A DNA stretch of 32,000 bases, taken from positions 12,428 through 44,427 of the forward strand of contig DAOVER010000024.1 of NCBI GenBank assembly GCA_030668875.1. Reading direction: 5' to 3'. A model generated the notes under the pieces. That model was given only the letters and a program-made list of their open reading frames with translations, had not been told where the DNA came from and ran no database searches. Positions within the stretch are counted from its first letter, which is position 1; each line of letters starts with the position of its first letter. This DNA is from Candidatus Heimdallarchaeota archaeon (GTDB lineage: Archaea; Asgardarchaeota; Heimdallarchaeia; Heimdallarchaeales; Heimdallarchaeaceae). Of the stretch, positions 3,117 to 16,910 are shown one piece after another. The translations under genes and the position numbers were made by a program.

Positions 3117-4112
3117 TTAGAAATCATAGGATGATGCAAGAACCATATATTCTGACACCAATGATTTTAACTCTTGTTTTTGATCTTCTGAATCTTCTTG
3201 CAAGGCTAAGGAATAATATACTTTGGCTCTGACATAAGCTCTATATGATTTGTAAAAATCAAGCAGCTCAAAATGATCTTCAATCTTTTCTCCCATATTG
3301 TTCATGTATTGTTGAATGAAGAACTCAGATGATCTAACCTGTTTATGAAAATCCAAGTCCATTGAAAGAAAAGCTACTTCTTCTAGAATATCCTGAATCC
3401 TCAACATTTTGTTAAATTCAATACAGTCAAAAATTATTACTTCATTTTGATTATAGAAAATGTTTCCTACTATTAAATCTCCATGTCCATCTATGATTTT
3501 TCCCTCTTCTTTTCGTTTATCGAAGATTTCCTTATTTGTTTCTAGAAACTTGTAAACTCTTTCTTCTAAACTCTCATCAAAAGGGAAGCCAAGGTATGTT
3601 TTAGTAGTTCTGAAATTCTCATCCCATTTCTCAAAAATACTATCATAAATGGAAAATTCTGGATAAACTATATTTTGCTTATGGAATATGGATATTTCAA
3701 CAGCTATTTTCTGTAAAATATAATCATCTATAGAACCTTTGTCCTTTAAGATGCTCAGAAGCAAAGAAGACTGAGGAAGTTGAACCATCTTAACAAGATA
3801 TTCAACGGGATTAGATGTCAAACCAATTTTCCCTTGAGAATCAACCATCTCGACACTTAGATATAAATCTGGAGCCATTCTTTTGTTCAATACTAGTTCA
3901 GCTTTTATTGTTTCATGCCTTTTCTCCAAGGATGTGAAATCTAATACATCGCCAAATTTGATAGATTTCTTCATTTTATAGGCGTATTTACCGGTAAGGA
4001 AAATCCAACTTATGTTTGTTTCAATTACATTAATGCTTTCTTGAACCTCGTGTGGATAAGTTGATGGGTTCCTAAGTGTTCGTACTACGTCTTTCTGTGA
4101 TAGCATTTCCAA
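3117..4112 (-). CDS. aminoglycoside-phosphotransferase-fold kinase (COG2187-like, the N-terminal half of the bacterial APH-AAA bifunctional protein)
   Basis: IETNISWIFLTGKYAYKMKK, ELVLNKRMAPDLY, DGHGDLIVGNI, DCIEFN, EVAFLSMDL and YRAYVRAKV motifs. Confidence 0.88.
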   Translation of the reverse strand: MEMLSQKDVVRTLRNPSTYPHEVQESINVIETNISWIFLTGKYAYKMKKSIKFGDVLDFTSLEKRHETIKAELVLNKRMAPDLYLSVEMVDSQGKIGLTSNPVEYLVKMVQLPQSSLLLSILKDKGSIDDYILQKIAVEISIFHKQNIVYPEFSIYDSIFEKWDENFRTTKTYLGFPFDESLEERVYKFLETNKEIFDKRKEEGKIIDGHGDLIVGNIFYNQNEVIIFDCIEFNKMLRIQDILEEVAFLSMDLDFHKQVRSSEFFIQQYMNNMGEKIEDHFELLDFYKSYRAYVRAKVYYSLALQEDSEDQKQELKSLVSEYMVLASSYDF

Positions 4113-4647
4113 TCATCTCAAGTGTTTTGTAGTGATCTTCTGCCATATCGACTTCAATATGTGATAGATTTGTAGGTTCAAAGAGTTCTTTGTATTTTTC
4201 TAATACTTTTATATCAGCATCGCTTAAGGTTCTTCTGTTTCTTTTCGCTCTTTCTTCAAACCTCTTACGAATTAAGTCTTCTGGGGCTTTTACTATAACT
4301 AATAAAAATGTTGCATCAAAACGAGCGCAGATTCTACCAACCTTGCTTCTAAGTTTATCTTGATAAAATGTTCCATCTAACACACAACCAACGCCATGTT
4401 TCAGAAGGGTATAGAGAACGTAGTAGATAGTATCATAAACCACATTCCTCTGCCTTTGTGAATAAGATCCTCTACCGAAAGAATTTTGTCTGACATCACG
4501 AAATATTCTTTTTCTGACAGAATCTGTGCTTATGTGCTCCAATCTATATTTTCTTGCTAGTTTTCTAGCTAACGTCGATTTCCCAGTTCCTGGTAAACCT
4601 GCTAGTAAAATTACTAAAGGAGTTCTTCTACCTATTCGAGAACCTAT
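4072..4647 (-). CDS. P-loop kinase, AAA_33 / COG0645-like; start extended to a non-canonical ATA
   Basis: The ORF track starts at TTG 4542, but the same frame stays open upstream and reads IGSRIGRRTPLVILLAGLPGTGKSTLARKLARKYRLEHISTD. Walker A is at 4573-4599. Downstream motifs: STDSVRK, VLDGTF, RTLSDAD. The start position is uncertain. Confidence 0.8.
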   Translation of the reverse strand: MGSRIGRRTPLVILLAGLPGTGKSTLARKLARKYRLEHISTDSVRKRIFRDVRQNSFGRGSYSQRQRNVVYDTIYYVLYTLLKHGVGCVLDGTFYQDKLRSKVGRICARFDATFLLVIVKAPEDLIRKRFEERAKRNRRTLSDADIKVLEKYKELFEPTNLSHIEVDMAEDHYKTLEMIGNAITERRSTNT

Positions 4648-4652
4648 TTATG

Positions 4653-7646
4653 TCACTTCCTTTTCTGATGATCAGGACAGAGTATCACTGTTTCTTCTTT
4701 GAAGAGACTCTTTTTAACTACTTCCTTTCCATGAGTACTACAAACTACTTTTCCGCATTGTGAACATTTCTGAATATGATCATTACAGGAAAAATTTTCG
4801 CAGAATTCGCATTTCTCTGCATAATCAGTAGAAACAACACTTTTGCAGGATGAGCATACAACAGCATGATTTGTACAAATTATCTTTTTAGACAATGAAC
4901 CTTCTATAGTATGATCTTGACATAAAACTTTTCCACAAACACTGCAAACATTAGGAGTGGAAACAAACAACATTTTGGAAGATTTCTGTTCTAGACATAT
5001 TTCACAAAGAAGATGAATTTCAGTGCCTAAAGCTGATTCAGCTATCCCTTTAAGTTGGAGTTTATTGCCTTTCTCATCTGCTATAGATATTTCTGCGAGG
5101 GATACAGGTATATAGATAATTGCGGCATAAATATCTTTAATTTCACTAGCTTTTGGAATGATAAAATCCTTTTTACTTAGAGTAAAATTACTGTCTTGTA
5201 GAAGCTTAACTCTTGGAAATGATTTAAGCTGAGTATCGATTGATTTGATTTTTTCAACCCCTTCCTCAATTTCCTTTATGTGGTTCTTAATTACTTCTGG
5301 ACCAAACTTTATTGTTTCTAGAGCTTTATTGTAATCCCCTACCTCACTGTTGCTCTTAAATTTGTATTTGTCTGTCATCAAAGGTTTTAGAGCAACATAA
5401 ATTCCCTTAGCTTGTTCAATTTGAGCATGGAATTTCTTCACTCTATTTCTCTTACTATCAATTACTTTGAAAATCTCAGTTCTTTCATTTTGCAGTTCTT
5501 CTGCCCAGTGATCAATTTCAGCTTTATGTTCTTTTTCGATATTCACTAATCCTTCCTCAACAGATTTCGTCCATGCTTGCCCATAGAAGGTTTCATCAAC
5601 AAGCAACACATCATGAAAGGATTCCAATATTATTTCAGGAGTTCTTTGAATTTCTAACTTTCTGATATTTGAAGATGTAGCACCATATAAACTACCAAGA
5701 TTTTTGAGAGGAAGAACTGAAATGAGCTCTTCGAAAACCTCCTCAGCTTGAATAGGTATTGATTTCTGCCCCCAGATTTCTTCATCTCCTCCAAACTCTA
5801 TTTTATCAAGTAATGGGAATATTCTTTTGATCGGTAAATCAAGAGTTACTTCTCCCCAACGATCAGCATTTGCATAATTTACTCGAATTCTTCGTTTAGC
5901 TTTGATTCTGAAATCCAGGTACAAGAATGGTATGTAAGCTAGCTCTAGGTTTTGAGTCCCCAGATAACTTAATTTTTTGTTTCCGAAGAATTTTTCCAAT
6001 AGTTCCTTAAATTCAACAGGTTCGTATTTCAGATACTGATCTTTCATTGTTTTTATTATGTTAGAAAGATCAATTAGTTCCACTTCTGGTTCTTTCTCAA
6101 TGACTTCATGGAAATCATCCTTTGTTTCTGTAGGTAAGGTTTCTAGTCCTTCGGGTTGAGTTTCTGATTCTGAATCAGAAGTCTCCGTTTTATCGATTCC
6201 TGCTTGTTTATCTAAGAGACTTGTTCTGCTAGAAAACTTTCTTATTGAAGCTAATTCTTTCTCTAAATCATCTAAACTAAGTTCCTTTGAGATATCCTCT
6301 AAATCCATAGAATCGATATCGTGATCATAAGCGCCGATTTGCTTACATAATGTTGGTGGAGGAAAATCATACATTTTAGCGACGTCTTCATCTGATAGAG
6401 TTTTGTGGACTGAATAGAGTCTGCGAGTGCTTATGTGAACTGGATCAGGGAAGACATCAGGTGAAAGAATGTAAAATTCACCACTTTTGAATTGTTGTAA
6501 CTGGTCAACAATGAACCGTGCTTCTGGTTGAGATTGAAGCATGTTATCAACGATTCTGAGATCTTGAGGAGTAACAAAACGACCAAAGAAGAAAGTACTC
6601 ACTTGTCCAAAAGCCTTGTAATCGACATCACTGATATTTTGCGTTGCAACAAGCATTGACAAACCAAATTTACGTCCTTGTTTGAATAGTAATTGCAACC
6701 ATTGTTTCGTTACAGGATTTTTCGGATGAGGGGGTATGAGTTGTGGTGGTCCTGCTAATTCATCTATATAGAAAATCAATTGAGGATCGGGTGAAGGGTT
6801 AGATCTGATGTATGTATAGAGGCTCTGAGCCAAAGTTGTTATGTAAATTTCTCTTAGTCTTAAATTTGTCAAAGTATTCAGGTAAATTATAGAAATTCTG
6901 ACTTTGTTAGGATCTGTTGGTGTTATTAGAGTCTGAATTGAGAGTTTTGGCCCTAGATTGAATACTAATGAAGGTGCTCCAACATTGATAGATTTTATTC
7001 TTTTAATCAACGAATCTTTTTCTCTTTGTGAAAGCAGTGTTCGTATATTTTCTGGTAAGTAAGCAACTTCTGTTTTTATTAAATCAATCAACATCTCAAA
7101 ATCTGCTATCAGAATATCTTTGAGTAGACACTGTTCAAAAAGCGACACCAAATAAGCTTTAATTGCTCCTCCTCTTTCAGAATTTAGTTTATAACCCAAA
7201 ACATTGGCAATGGTTGTTGCTATTCCATCGATAGCAAGAATCTTTTCTTCTCTGTCTAACTCTTGAGGAGGCATGATTAGTGGGTTTATAGAAAGAGGTA
7301 TTCCTTTCTCTGATGCTGGAGTGAAAACAACAATCTCAACCTTATCTTTATACTGTTCAAAAAACTCTTTAGAGATACCATAAGGCTTCAACTTATCATG
7401 TTCCTCAACAATAACAAGACTAGTTATATCCCCTTGTGGATCAATGATAATTGCTGGGATATTATTCCTTACAGCTTCTTCGATGAGAATCTTACAAACG
7501 ACAGTTTTTCCTGAACCACTCTGACCAAAAACACTGATGTGTTTGCTCAAAGCTTTAACAGGTAAATAAACATCTTCCTGTGTGGAAAATTCTTTTCCAA
7601 TATGCATTGATGGGTTCTGAGCATTTTTCTCTGGCATCTTCTTCAA
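4653..7646 (-). CDS. HerA/FtsK-superfamily (DUF87-like) ATPase with a coiled coil and a C-terminal Cys/His repeat array
   Basis: Walker A GQSGSGKT, IIIDPQGD, Walker B IFYIDE, GRKFG arginine-finger motif, ATQ sensor, then an acidic linker, a coiled coil and a Cys/His-rich tail. The start may be ATG 7637. Confidence 0.88.
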   Translation of the reverse strand: MKKMPEKNAQNPSMHIGKEFSTQEDVYLPVKALSKHISVFGQSGSGKTVVCKILIEEAVRNNIPAIIIDPQGDITSLVIVEEHDKLKPYGISKEFFEQYKDKVEIVVFTPASEKGIPLSINPLIMPPQELDREEKILAIDGIATTIANVLGYKLNSERGGAIKAYLVSLFEQCLLKDILIADFEMLIDLIKTEVAYLPENIRTLLSQREKDSLIKRIKSINVGAPSLVFNLGPKLSIQTLITPTDPNKVRISIIYLNTLTNLRLREIYITTLAQSLYTYIRSNPSPDPQLIFYIDELAGPPQLIPPHPKNPVTKQWLQLLFKQGRKFGLSMLVATQNISDVDYKAFGQVSTFFFGRFVTPQDLRIVDNMLQSQPEARFIVDQLQQFKSGEFYILSPDVFPDPVHISTRRLYSVHKTLSDEDVAKMYDFPPPTLCKQIGAYDHDIDSMDLEDISKELSLDDLEKELASIRKFSSRTSLLDKQAGIDKTETSDSESETQPEGLETLPTETKDDFHEVIEKEPEVELIDLSNIIKTMKDQYLKYEPVEFKELLEKFFGNKKLSYLGTQNLELAYIPFLYLDFRIKAKRRIRVNYANADRWGEVTLDLPIKRIFPLLDKIEFGGDEEIWGQKSIPIQAEEVFEELISVLPLKNLGSLYGATSSNIRKLEIQRTPEIILESFHDVLLVDETFYGQAWTKSVEEGLVNIEKEHKAEIDHWAEELQNERTEIFKVIDSKRNRVKKFHAQIEQAKGIYVALKPLMTDKYKFKSNSEVGDYNKALETIKFGPEVIKNHIKEIEEGVEKIKSIDTQLKSFPRVKLLQDSNFTLSKKDFIIPKASEIKDIYAAIIYIPVSLAEISIADEKGNKLQLKGIAESALGTEIHLLCEICLEQKSSKMLFVSTPNVCSVCGKVLCQDHTIEGSLSKKIICTNHAVVCSSCKSVVSTDYAEKCEFCENFSCNDHIQKCSQCGKVVCSTHGKEVVKKSLFKEETVILCPDHQKRK

Positions 7647-8553: not shown

Positions 8554-9384
8554 CTACTTAAAGGTAGCTCTTGCAGATATTATATGTGGACTTACTCCTT
8601 TTTGGAATCGTACTATAACAACATTGTTTCTGGAAGAATTTTTACCATGAATGCGTGATATTGTACCAGTTAATTGCTTACCTGATTTAACATAATTTAT
8701 GCTTACCTTTCTTCCTAAATAACTGCTAATTGGCAATTCAATATCATGAAGATGTAAAATTACAGATCTATTAGTTGATTTACCTGATGCATCATGAAGC
8801 ACAGAATGGACAATTCCATATGTCTTAGACAAAGTAACTTTCTTCTTAGCTTTTGCTTTCTTTTTAGAAGTTTTAGATTTTATCTTTCGCATAGCTTTTG
8901 CTCTTTCAATATACTTTACAGTAGCTGGCGAAACACCTTTCTTCACGGCAATAGTTGCTTTGGGTTTGACTACAGGTTTCTTTGTTTCAGATTTTACTGC
9001 GGGTTTTTTAACAACGGTTTTCTTTGCTGGAGTTTTAGCGGCTAGTTCAGGTTTTTTAACAGATGGTCGCACGGATGTTTTCTCTACTTCTTTCTTCAAA
9101 GTGGGAGGTTTAGGTATTGTTGCTTTATCTACTGTTTTTACTTTGGATTTAACTTCAGTTTTCTTTGCGGGTGCTTTAGCAACAGGTTTTTTAGCTGGAG
9201 TTAATACTTCGTTTGCACCTAGAATCATTTTTTCAGCAGTTGATTTTCCTATACCAGGTAATTGTGATAACTCGTCTGCTGAAGCTTTGGCTAGTTTTTC
9301 AACTGTGTTGAAACCACAATCTACAAGAGTTTTAGCTGCTTTGGGTCCAATTCCTTTAATATTCTCTATTTCGTTAATTGCCAT
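8554..9384 (-). CDS. rpl35ae: fusion of a helix-hairpin-helix domain, a Lys/Pro/Ala-rich linker and a ribosomal protein eL33 (L35Ae)-like domain
   Basis: Two HhH motifs (KGIGPKAA, LPGIGKSTA) in aa 1-61. The C-terminal 90 aa (YLGRKVSINYVKSGKQLTGTISRIHG...VRFQKG) match the archaeal L35Ae pattern (LIGRxVxW.SPSGK...GKI.RVHG..G.VRARFEKG). Confidence 0.75.
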   Translation of the reverse strand: MAINEIENIKGIGPKAAKTLVDCGFNTVEKLAKASADELSQLPGIGKSTAEKMILGANEVLTPAKKPVAKAPAKKTEVKSKVKTVDKATIPKPPTLKKEVEKTSVRPSVKKPELAAKTPAKKTVVKKPAVKSETKKPVVKPKATIAVKKGVSPATVKYIERAKAMRKIKSKTSKKKAKAKKKVTLSKTYGIVHSVLHDASGKSTNRSVILHLHDIELPISSYLGRKVSINYVKSGKQLTGTISRIHGKNSSRNNVVIVRFQKGVSPHIISARATFK

Positions 9385-9547
9385 TATATAACCCTTCTGA
9401 ATGTCAAAATTGAGAAGATTCTTTTTAAAAATCTTTAGATTGTAATGTTTTTGTCTTTTGAATGTGTTTCAGAAAAATGTGAAAACTTTTATCTTGTAGA
9501 TTAATATATGTCTCAAGAGTAATTCGAATTTAAAGAAGTGATATTAC

Positions 9548-15503: not shown

Positions 15504-16910
15504 TTATTCCCTAATTAAGGTATTTGCACCATAGATAAGTTTCTTTGCTGAAGTTATCCCTATACCTCTTATTTTGCTTAATTCTTCAGGTTTAGAGTTT
15601 GCAAGCTGATCAATTGTTTCAACGCCACCATCTTTAAGCAACATAGCAATTTTTTCTCCAACTCCTGATATATCTACTATCCTCAGTTCAGCTTTCTTAT
15701 CTGTAAAAATTTCAGTTGAATCTATTGTTTCTTCTCCATCATCAATAATTTCTATTTCGAATGGTAGAGTTTTTTTTGCTTTAATTGAAGGTTTACTTAC
15801 AGACGGGAGTCTTCGAGTTTTCTTTCTTTTACTTCCTGGAGGTGCAGGGATTTTATCTATCTCAGGATCTATCTTCCTCACAGGATGAATAAAAGCTTCA
15901 GATTCATTTCTGATAAGTTCACTCGGCTTTCGAAGATGCTCAACTTCTTCAAATACAGTTTCCTTATCCTTAAGATAATCTGAAGGTTTTAACAGTCTCT
16001 CACTTTTAGGAGGAGTTAGCTTCTGTTCAACTATTTCTTTTTTCTTGGTTGGTTGTTGAACAAGTTTCTTAGTTTTTGTTTCTGTTTTTACTGTTTCAAT
16101 AGTTTTCTCATGTGAGAGTTCGCTTGGTTTAACTGTTGTATCAGCCACTGCATCGATTGTTTCTCGCTTTTTCAGATACTGTGTGGGTTTGAGTATGTCA
16201 ACAGATTCAACCTTTTTCTCTTTTTTGGGTGAAGGTTTTGTAACAATTGGATCACCCATAATTTTCTTTGGAGCTTTGGGTTTAATTGCTTCTGGCTCAA
16301 AAATTGTATCGCGTTTCTTAATAACATCACTTGGCTTAAGTAGAGTATTTACAAGAGGTGCTTCTGGTTCTTCTTCCTCTTCTTCTACTTTCACTGGAGG
16401 CATTATTGTTACACTAGGAGATATTATCTCGTCTTTTTTAAACAGTTCACTGGGTTTAACAATTTCTGAAGCTGGAGATACAAGACTTTCAACGTCAGTT
16501 GTCATTTCTCTTTTCTTTGAAACAGATTCAAGAGGTTCTTGTACAACTTTGGCTTCTCTAATATCCAAACCAGAAGAGTGCAATGAGGCACCTTTACCCA
16601 AGTTTCTTACTAGTTCAATAAGTTGATAGAAATTGATATTTGTAATACCTACATCTGAAAAATATTCTGCTAACCAGTTTGCAAAACGGTGGACATTTAC
16701 CTCAGATCCTAGCATTTTTTCCCAAAAATTCATTATTATCGTTGTAAGTTGATCAAATGAAGAATATTTATGAGTCTGTGTTATATGTTTACCATCATAT
16801 AAATCTAGAACACCTGTCATGTGCTCACTAAATACATTCTCATTTGGTTTGATGACGACACTATATCTATAACTTCCAATCAAACTTCTACGTTGTGGTC
16901 GCGATGACAT
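15504..16910 (-). CDS. protein with a globular N-domain, a long low-complexity region bearing six KPS(E/D) repeats, and a C-terminal helix-hairpin-helix domain
   Basis: HhH motifs ISGVGEKIA and IRGIGITSA; repeated (L/V)KPS(E/D)xx(K) motif in a Lys/Glu/Pro-rich region. Confidence 0.85.
   Translation of the reverse strand: MSSRPQRRSLIGSYRYSVVIKPNENVFSEHMTGVLDLYDGKHITQTHKYSSFDQLTTIIMNFWEKMLGSEVNVHRFANWLAEYFSDVGITNINFYQLIELVRNLGKGASLHSSGLDIREAKVVQEPLESVSKKREMTTDVESLVSPASEIVKPSELFKKDEIISPSVTIMPPVKVEEEEEEPEAPLVNTLLKPSDVIKKRDTIFEPEAIKPKAPKKIMGDPIVTKPSPKKEKKVESVDILKPTQYLKKRETIDAVADTTVKPSELSHEKTIETVKTETKTKKLVQQPTKKKEIVEQKLTPPKSERLLKPSDYLKDKETVFEEVEHLRKPSELIRNESEAFIHPVRKIDPEIDKIPAPPGSKRKKTRRLPSVSKPSIKAKKTLPFEIEIIDDGEETIDSTEIFTDKKAELRIVDISGVGEKIAMLLKDGGVETIDQLANSKPEELSKIRGIGITSAKKLIYGANTLIRE

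Follow-up and report, generated by a model that had tools for sequence, protein, structure and literature searches.

The window (a 32,000-nucleotide stretch from a Candidatus Heimdallarchaeota archaeon) encodes on its minus strand, at 8554-9384, a protein in which a small double helix-hairpin-helix (HhH) domain, of a type known from DNA repair, is joined through a long basic linker to a divergent version of the large-subunit ribosomal protein eL33 (L35Ae). This fusion is real, clade-wide and under selection, and it suggests that ribosomes may carry grabbing arms in a whole order of the Heimdall group. The reading preferred here, to which we give a probability of about 0.55 when the site on the ribosome and the class of target are included, is that of a genuine ribosomal eL33 that carries, on a tether, an arm for binding nucleic acids. 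At NCBI the homologues are labelled either “helix-hairpin-helix domain-containing” or “hypothetical”, so that the eL33 of the Heimdall group has been present but hidden; the fusion fills a gap stated in a 2023 review, in which eL33 in Heimdallarchaeota is given as “distribution unknown” (PMC9932298). No published description of an HhH-eL33 fusion was found in the literature searched, which did not cover subscription papers.

Architecture of the fusion gene

The gene is a single unbroken open reading frame of 276 aa (pI ~10.4), and a chance fusion or a frameshift is ruled out by the recurrence of the architecture in 28 genomes. About 40 nt upstream of its ATG there is a BRE/TATA-like element (AAAGA followed by TTTTTAAA; 9424-9436, minus strand), read by eye, which is probably the gene's own archaeal promoter. 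The (HhH)2 domain (aa 1-61; 9202-9384, minus strand), defined by an HHH_5 match and the predicted structure, leads into a linker (aa 61-185) with 39 Lys, 16 Ala, 16 Val, 13 Thr and 13 Pro residues and a net charge of +35. The linker resembles the Lys/Ala/Pro-rich, basic C-terminal tail of histone H1, a likeness of composition and disorder only, given that Pfam returned no histone H1 family match in the protein. Its first part is a disordered Lys/Pro/Ala/Val/Thr tether (aa 62-148; 8941-9201, minus strand), with pLDDT below 50 over aa 65-146 of the full-length model and gap-rich alignment columns (the whole linker measures 67-178 aa among relatives), in which only some islands are conserved, namely IPKP near aa 90 and PSVK near aa 108. 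The second part (aa 149-185; 8830-8940, minus strand) is predicted to be an ordered N-terminal extension of eL33: it has pLDDT values of 75-87, with a helix at aa 153-161 and then a Lys-rich extended segment, and its alignment shows few gaps from aa 161 onward, with K169 and K171 invariant. Additional N-terminal residues are also present in the ribosome-bound eL33 of Drosophila and trypanosomes. The preliminary description of this DNA was right about a basic tail of ~125 aa, with one refinement: ~37 of its residues (aa ~149-185) are predicted to be ordered. The protein ends in a divergent eL33 β-barrel (aa 186-276; 8557-8829, minus strand; net charge +11), recognized by profiles and fold.

No ribosomal protein genes neighbour the fusion gene in the window. 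This had been taken as an argument for something unusual; the fact holds, but the argument is weakened, since canonical eL33 genes of Asgard archaea are also found among unrelated genes, outside ribosomal protein operons, which makes the position ordinary. Downstream, on the same strand, lie genes for a HerA-like ATPase with a Cys-rich tail (4653-7646), an AAA_33 protein (4072-4542) and a 331-aa protein without a Pfam match (3117-4112), and the order of these three is kept in two relatives (G001 and G026).

Identity of the C-terminal barrel

Searched directly with the available L35Ae models, as had been proposed, the C-terminal domain does produce matches, but these stay under the curated cut-offs (PF01247: E 0.0012, 19.4 bits against 27; NF003326: E 1.8e-6, 27.9 bits against 85). 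Profiles built from homologues are more telling. That of 32 homologous C-terminal domains has its match to P. furiosus L35Ae at E 2.2e-12, followed by eukaryotic eL33, nearly all its PDB matches being eL33 chains; a profile without members of the host family recovers the open reading frame at E 1.1e-10; and with a profile of non-Heimdall Asgard eL33 the domain scores 20.8 bits, which none of 2000 shuffles reaches (9.4 for the best of them). In the AlphaFold model (pLDDT 85.5), P. furiosus eL33 is the top Foldseek match (E 3e-5, TM 0.73), the 50 matches listed are ribosome entries or isolated L35Ae, and the predicted barrel superposes on P. furiosus eL33 with Z 11.8 (rmsd 3.0 over 84 aa). A wide structure search, in turn, places ATPase and peptidase barrels in a tie at Z ~9-10, so that the fold alone is not specific and it is the sequence evidence that carries the assignment. 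With the homologue profile, the Foldseek ranking and the shuffles in agreement, the L35Ae-like barrel first noticed by eye is borne out.

The eL33 core residues G224, G240, G247 and R259 are invariant and H246 and F260 are conserved in at least 90% of the sequences, this Gly/His-Gly/Arg-Phe core occupying the matching columns in canonical eL33. The basic YRR patch, on the other hand, is replaced here by V-L-H-D, with H197-D198 (8791-8796, minus strand) at the position of the canonical arginines. HD appears in 16/16 host-family rows of a motif table, and in the host-family alignment H197 is invariant and D198 at least 90% conserved. Elsewhere the loop, which has changed stepwise and has lost YRR in only two families, reads RD or RA in family f4, SYRR, SHRR, SFRR or SKRR in the HhH-fused copies of family f3, and SYRR in family f6, and the motif is variable in the canonical eL33 of other Asgard families too. 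As HhH-fused f3 copies keep SYRR or SHRR, the fusion is compatible with a canonical rRNA-binding loop and the loss of YRR came later than the fusion; the absence of the patch, correctly noted at the outset, is consequently a weaker argument for repurposing. Compared with archaeal eL33 (PF01247, NF003326; P. furiosus 4V6U and 9QF4 chain Bc; 1SQR, 2LP6), the protein shares the barrel, the invariant glycines and a vertically inherited single-copy gene away from operons; it differs in its length (276 aa against ~87 aa, owing to the added N-terminal HhH domain and tether), in having HD for YRR, in its sub-cut-off scores and in being known from sequence and model.

The helix-hairpin-helix domain

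The N-terminal domain is a genuine (HhH)2 domain, as proposed from the first reading of 9202-9384. HHH_5 (PF14520) matches aa 5-58 with E 2.2e-17 and 63.7 bits (cut-off 27), covering two HHH motifs; the two GhG hairpins are GIGPK (aa 11-15) and GIGKS (aa 44-48), with G11, G13, G44 and G46 invariant in 35 homologues; and the predicted model shows a five-helix fold at pLDDT ~85. Hairpins of the GhG type bind the nucleic-acid backbone independently of sequence, and to judge from the motif the same would apply to this domain, which is near-neutral (net charge -1, ranging from -4 to +3). Its nearest fold is the N-domain of RadA/Rad51 (Z 11.6, rmsd 2.2 over 62 aa), which is also its top NCBIfam match (E 8e-11); the fusion protein differs in having no ATPase, and its HhH domain is only 33% identical to the RadA N-domain of the same genome, from which it is separate in the tree. 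In that tree the eL33 arms stand apart from the arms that uS4 and uL24 carry (84/83, not starred), and the lack of resolution at depth means that no donor is named. The homodimer prediction score (0.02) speaks neither for nor against a dimer, and a feature search of the ESM Atlas gave no usable match.

Copy number and evolution

No second eL33 was found with six profiles among the 23,282 six-frame open reading frames of the genome carrying the window (G000, 92% complete). A PF01247 search is by itself uninformative about copy number, since it overlooked even the fusion in this genome. In two relatives assembled as single contigs (G026 and G029), a profile free of family members gives one match each, which is the fusion. 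In the tree of the eL33 domain, each family comes out as a group, as do the order (98/87) and, set against other Asgards, the class (99/97). A sole eL33 and a tree that tracks taxonomy argue for a true orthologue rather than a spare paralogue, and together with the predicted fold they indicate that the protein is the cell's genuine and sole ribosomal eL33, a single-copy orthologue inherited vertically. Between the two readings initially offered, a ribosomal protein with a tethered arm thus fares better, and a repurposed paralogue, as it was stated, finds no second, canonical gene in any of these three genomes to be a paralogue of.

In comparisons with the closest relatives, the HhH domain has a dN/dS of 0.13-0.30, eL33 one of 0.12-0.17 and the linker one of ~0.4; more generally the ratio is mostly 0.1-0.35 for HhH and 0.2-0.5 for the linker, and some pairs of very similar sequences from other parts of the family give noisier values of up to 0.5. 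Such ratios indicate that purifying selection acts on both folded domains, and at greater distances the HhH domain is conserved more than the barrel. Across the class, eL33 evolves ~2-2.7 times faster than uL24 and uS4. Under a mixture model the stem of the host family is long (2.35); LG+G4 gives no clear extra burst there, the ratio of stem to within-family distance being 1.1 for eL33 against 1.4 for uL24 and 1.2 for uS4 (with differing taxon sets). In ribosomal-type codon usage the fusion gene lies at the 78th percentile, whereas most ribosomal protein genes lie above 90.

Distribution across Asgard archaea

Homologues are assigned by their database names to Ca. Heimdallarchaeaceae, and 21 further ones (236-299 aa) all have HHH_5. 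One eL33 match was found in 33 of the 46 genomes of the order; the HhH domain is present in all 28 copies with a complete 5' end, the five others being cut by contig ends, and the eL33 open frames measure 209-452 aa, against ~90 aa for the stand-alone form. The survey across Asgard archaea that had been suggested thus makes the fusion the normal form in this order, although no paper was found that documents it as such. Searches outside the order found no HhH-eL33, which is weak evidence, and among the matches listed (69 more exist) the other Asgard eL33 are mostly short stand-alone frames. Within the same class, eL33 of f6 has a Lys/Thr tail without HhH, and the same is true of a family named Hermodarchaeota at source. 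In several f6 loci (L034-L053, L285-L288), tails of H1-like Lys/Thr/Ala/Ser composition are seen at the N-terminus of eL33 and at the C-terminus of eL32, again without HhH. One f6 genome has, beside its native f6-type eL33, an eL33 fusion ~80% identical to the present one on a short contig (L005; G047 contig C109), which is probably bin contamination.

Three f3 genomes have two HhH domains on eL33. The f3 linkers contain the conserved motifs GIPTKKKRG, W-x-V, a helix, ITR-x-IP, PVKA and YY (L028-L031, L044, L052, L054, L096) and gave no match in the PDB; this long linker is possibly an rRNA-threading extension. Homology between the linker islands of f1 and f3 is not supported (hhalign E 0.51).

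In the host family, eL33 was found in 22 of 29 relatives, compared with 26-28 for uL24, uS4 and eL32. Family f5, with a uS4 that groups among proteins labelled Hodarchaeales, stands further out: three profiles found no eL33 in 22 genomes, nor did a fourth in five of those, while eL32 was found in 22/22, and several f5 genomes are 94-99% complete (f5 includes, e.g., G067, G072 and G058). Loss or extreme divergence is the probable cause, and the observation bears on the ribosome of the nearest relatives of eukaryotes. A transfer of the HhH domain to eL32 where eL33 is absent was considered and rejected: the f5 eL32 frames measure 171-216 aa where complete, the tail of the one that was read is acidic, and such short HhH proteins of f5 as were read are RadA paralogues.

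Other arms and precedents

The HhH profile, run against the genome, brought up uL24 and uS4 as further proteins with an HhH domain at their end, attached in uL24 by an acidic linker and in uS4 by a Lys/Glu/Pro repeat linker (L142:4758-5531, minus strand, and L143:6541-7815, plus strand; contig C68). Both genes are located in their normal operons. Their arms are 79% identical to each other and 45-47% identical to the eL33 arm, which is the most widespread of the three, as the uS4 arm is confined to the genus (11 genomes, none in the other genera read) and the uL24 arm to four genomes. On the same contig, opposite-strand SecY-like open reading frames (76826-78244 and 70807-72288, plus strand) break, as read by eye, the spc-type ribosomal cluster. 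The same HhH module caps non-ribosomal proteins as well, so it may be a generic tag. Examples are a 468-aa protein of no known family in the window (15507-16910, minus strand; C-terminal HHH_5, E 1e-11), which in G026 and G029 has an apparent counterpart 2-3 kb away from the eL33 fusion, and a helical-repeat protein with HhH at its C-terminus (L144:3461-4132, minus strand). Another contig (C32, 9345-21983, plus strand) carries a 4200-aa open reading frame with a Lys-rich segment.

The closest precedent is the HhH-eL32 of haloarchaea (PRK12766; ribosome entries 9L94 chain Q, 1JJ2 chain X, 1S72 chain Y), likewise an N-terminal HhH domain and a linker on a large-subunit protein, and the two HhH domains match at E 1.5e-7. 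The fusion is nevertheless not a member of that family: the PRK12766 match covers aa 3-122 with E 1.5e-8 but 34.6 bits (cut-off 239), carrier protein and phylum are different, and the linker is strongly basic here. Moreover, eL32 has a gene of its own, located on contig C68, the C-terminal domain of the fusion being eL33, and HhH is absent from the eL32 copies of the class that were read. eL14 and eL32, which belong to the same large-subunit region as eL33, are both present in the genome. In yeast, eL32 and eL33 both bind domain II (PMC12825303), and H. marismortui is without eL33 (PMC3553981); by analogy, two lineages may have equipped the same large-subunit region with an HhH arm. No literature was found on the function of the haloarchaeal eL32 HhH domain. 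A more distant likeness is that of Drosophila eL22 and uL23, ribosomal proteins with a long H1-like N-terminal extension (PMC3074143), although by composition only and with no HhH cap described.

A possible function and its alternatives

In the preferred reading, the barrel would sit on the large subunit at the usual eL33 site, which adjoins ES7 and ES39 (PMC7594248). With the YRR loop changed to HD in the host family, the Lys-rich extension (aa 149-185) may replace the lost rRNA contacts, and on the flexible basic tether, with an estimated reach of at most ~30 nm when stretched, the (HhH)2 domain would stand out from the solvent face. The two GhG hairpins would then grip the backbone of a duplex without sequence preference, be it nucleoid DNA, structured mRNA or rRNA, and the outcome would be a weak tether keeping ribosomes or assembling subunits close to nucleic acid, reinforced within the genus by the similar uS4 and uL24 arms. 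A ribosomal eL33 is favoured by the sole copy, the taxonomic tree, the retention of HhH in every complete copy, the purifying selection, the uS4 and uL24 arms in their normal operons and the haloarchaeal precedent. It is weakened by the sub-cut-off barrel, the acidic HD in place of YRR, the fast evolution, the long mixture-model stem, the modest codon percentile, the incomplete recovery of eL33 among relatives and the near-zero charge of HhH. The recurrence of HhH arms on eL33, uS4, uL24 and haloarchaeal eL32 points to a selected ribosome accessory. A possible but rather doubtful version is that up to three flexible arms (on eL33 order-wide, on uS4 genus-wide and on uL24 in some species) bind chromosomal DNA or transcription complexes and anchor translation to the nucleoid, with a separate evolution of the arm on haloarchaeal eL32. 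If the arms do bind DNA, this would matter for the way in which Asgard cells arrange translation and chromosome.

The arm might instead dock proteins such as RNA polymerase or an elongation factor, which would couple transcription to translation, or a ribosome-dimerising or hibernation partner, as the acidic repeats AR1 and AR2 of NusA do, also tethered modules on the gene-expression machinery. The domain superposes on NusA AR2 with Z 10.1 (rmsd 2.0 over 65 aa; Z 9.8 for AR2 in the SuhB complex), matches the corresponding TIGR01954 (E 2.6e-8, although its 33.8 bits fall below the cut-off of 48.15) and is near-neutral rather than basic, and an HHH_5 arm is also found on thorarchaeal Rpo6 (PMC13257274). 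Yet both GhG hairpins are intact and conserved, the acidity of the NusA repeats is missing, and RadA N-domains fit equally well or slightly better. The archaeal RNA polymerase, moreover, is not known to have an alpha-CTD, the partner of AR2. All this leaves protein docking unlikely.

More unlikely still is that the sole eL33 of the host family has left the ribosome to become a stand-alone nucleic-acid-binding protein, either nucleoid-associated or an RNA chaperone, made up of HhH, an H1-like tail and a remodelled barrel. The conserved HD, the long family stem and the weak codon signal would fit such a departure, as would the dispensability of eL33 in archaea (bioRxiv 2021.01.31.429008) and the failure to find it in the 22 Hodarchaeales-family genomes; against this, the LG+G4 stem ratio does not exceed those of uL24 and uS4 (their differing taxon sets considered), the barrel is still basic, the fusion is older than the motif change, and canonical eL33 in other Asgard families varies at YRR as well. 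Least probable of all is an arm with a role solely in assembly or away from the mature ribosome (by chaperoning pre-rRNA or binding its own gene or mRNA), or one that is an almost neutral addition in a slow-growing lineage that readily gains charged tails. Long charged tails are indeed habitual in the class (those of uL24, uS4 and eL32 in this genome and the K/T tails of f6), and the linker varies widely in length, but the HhH domain is conserved at least as well as the barrel, is never missing from a complete copy and occurs twice in three f3 genomes. That conservation argues against neutrality, not against a role in assembly.

Ribosomal RNA context

The genome carrying the window has no assembled 23S; the expansion segments were measured in relatives. 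The span of ES39 is 113-115 nt in the host family, compared with 127-191 nt in others, and that of ES7 is 117-119 nt everywhere measured; a linker serving as a scaffold for supersized ES39 or ES7 is thus unsupported, ES39 being short precisely in the host family. Inserts of ~190-420 nt in total are seen in the peptidyl-transferase ring, near E. coli positions 2449 and/or 2500 as read from their flanks, in five 23S loci (L226, L228, L231, L227 and L230, from G026, G029, G024, G035 and G081), and the 23S of G029 has an additional 678-nt insert near 1930. The inserts look like group I intron sites.
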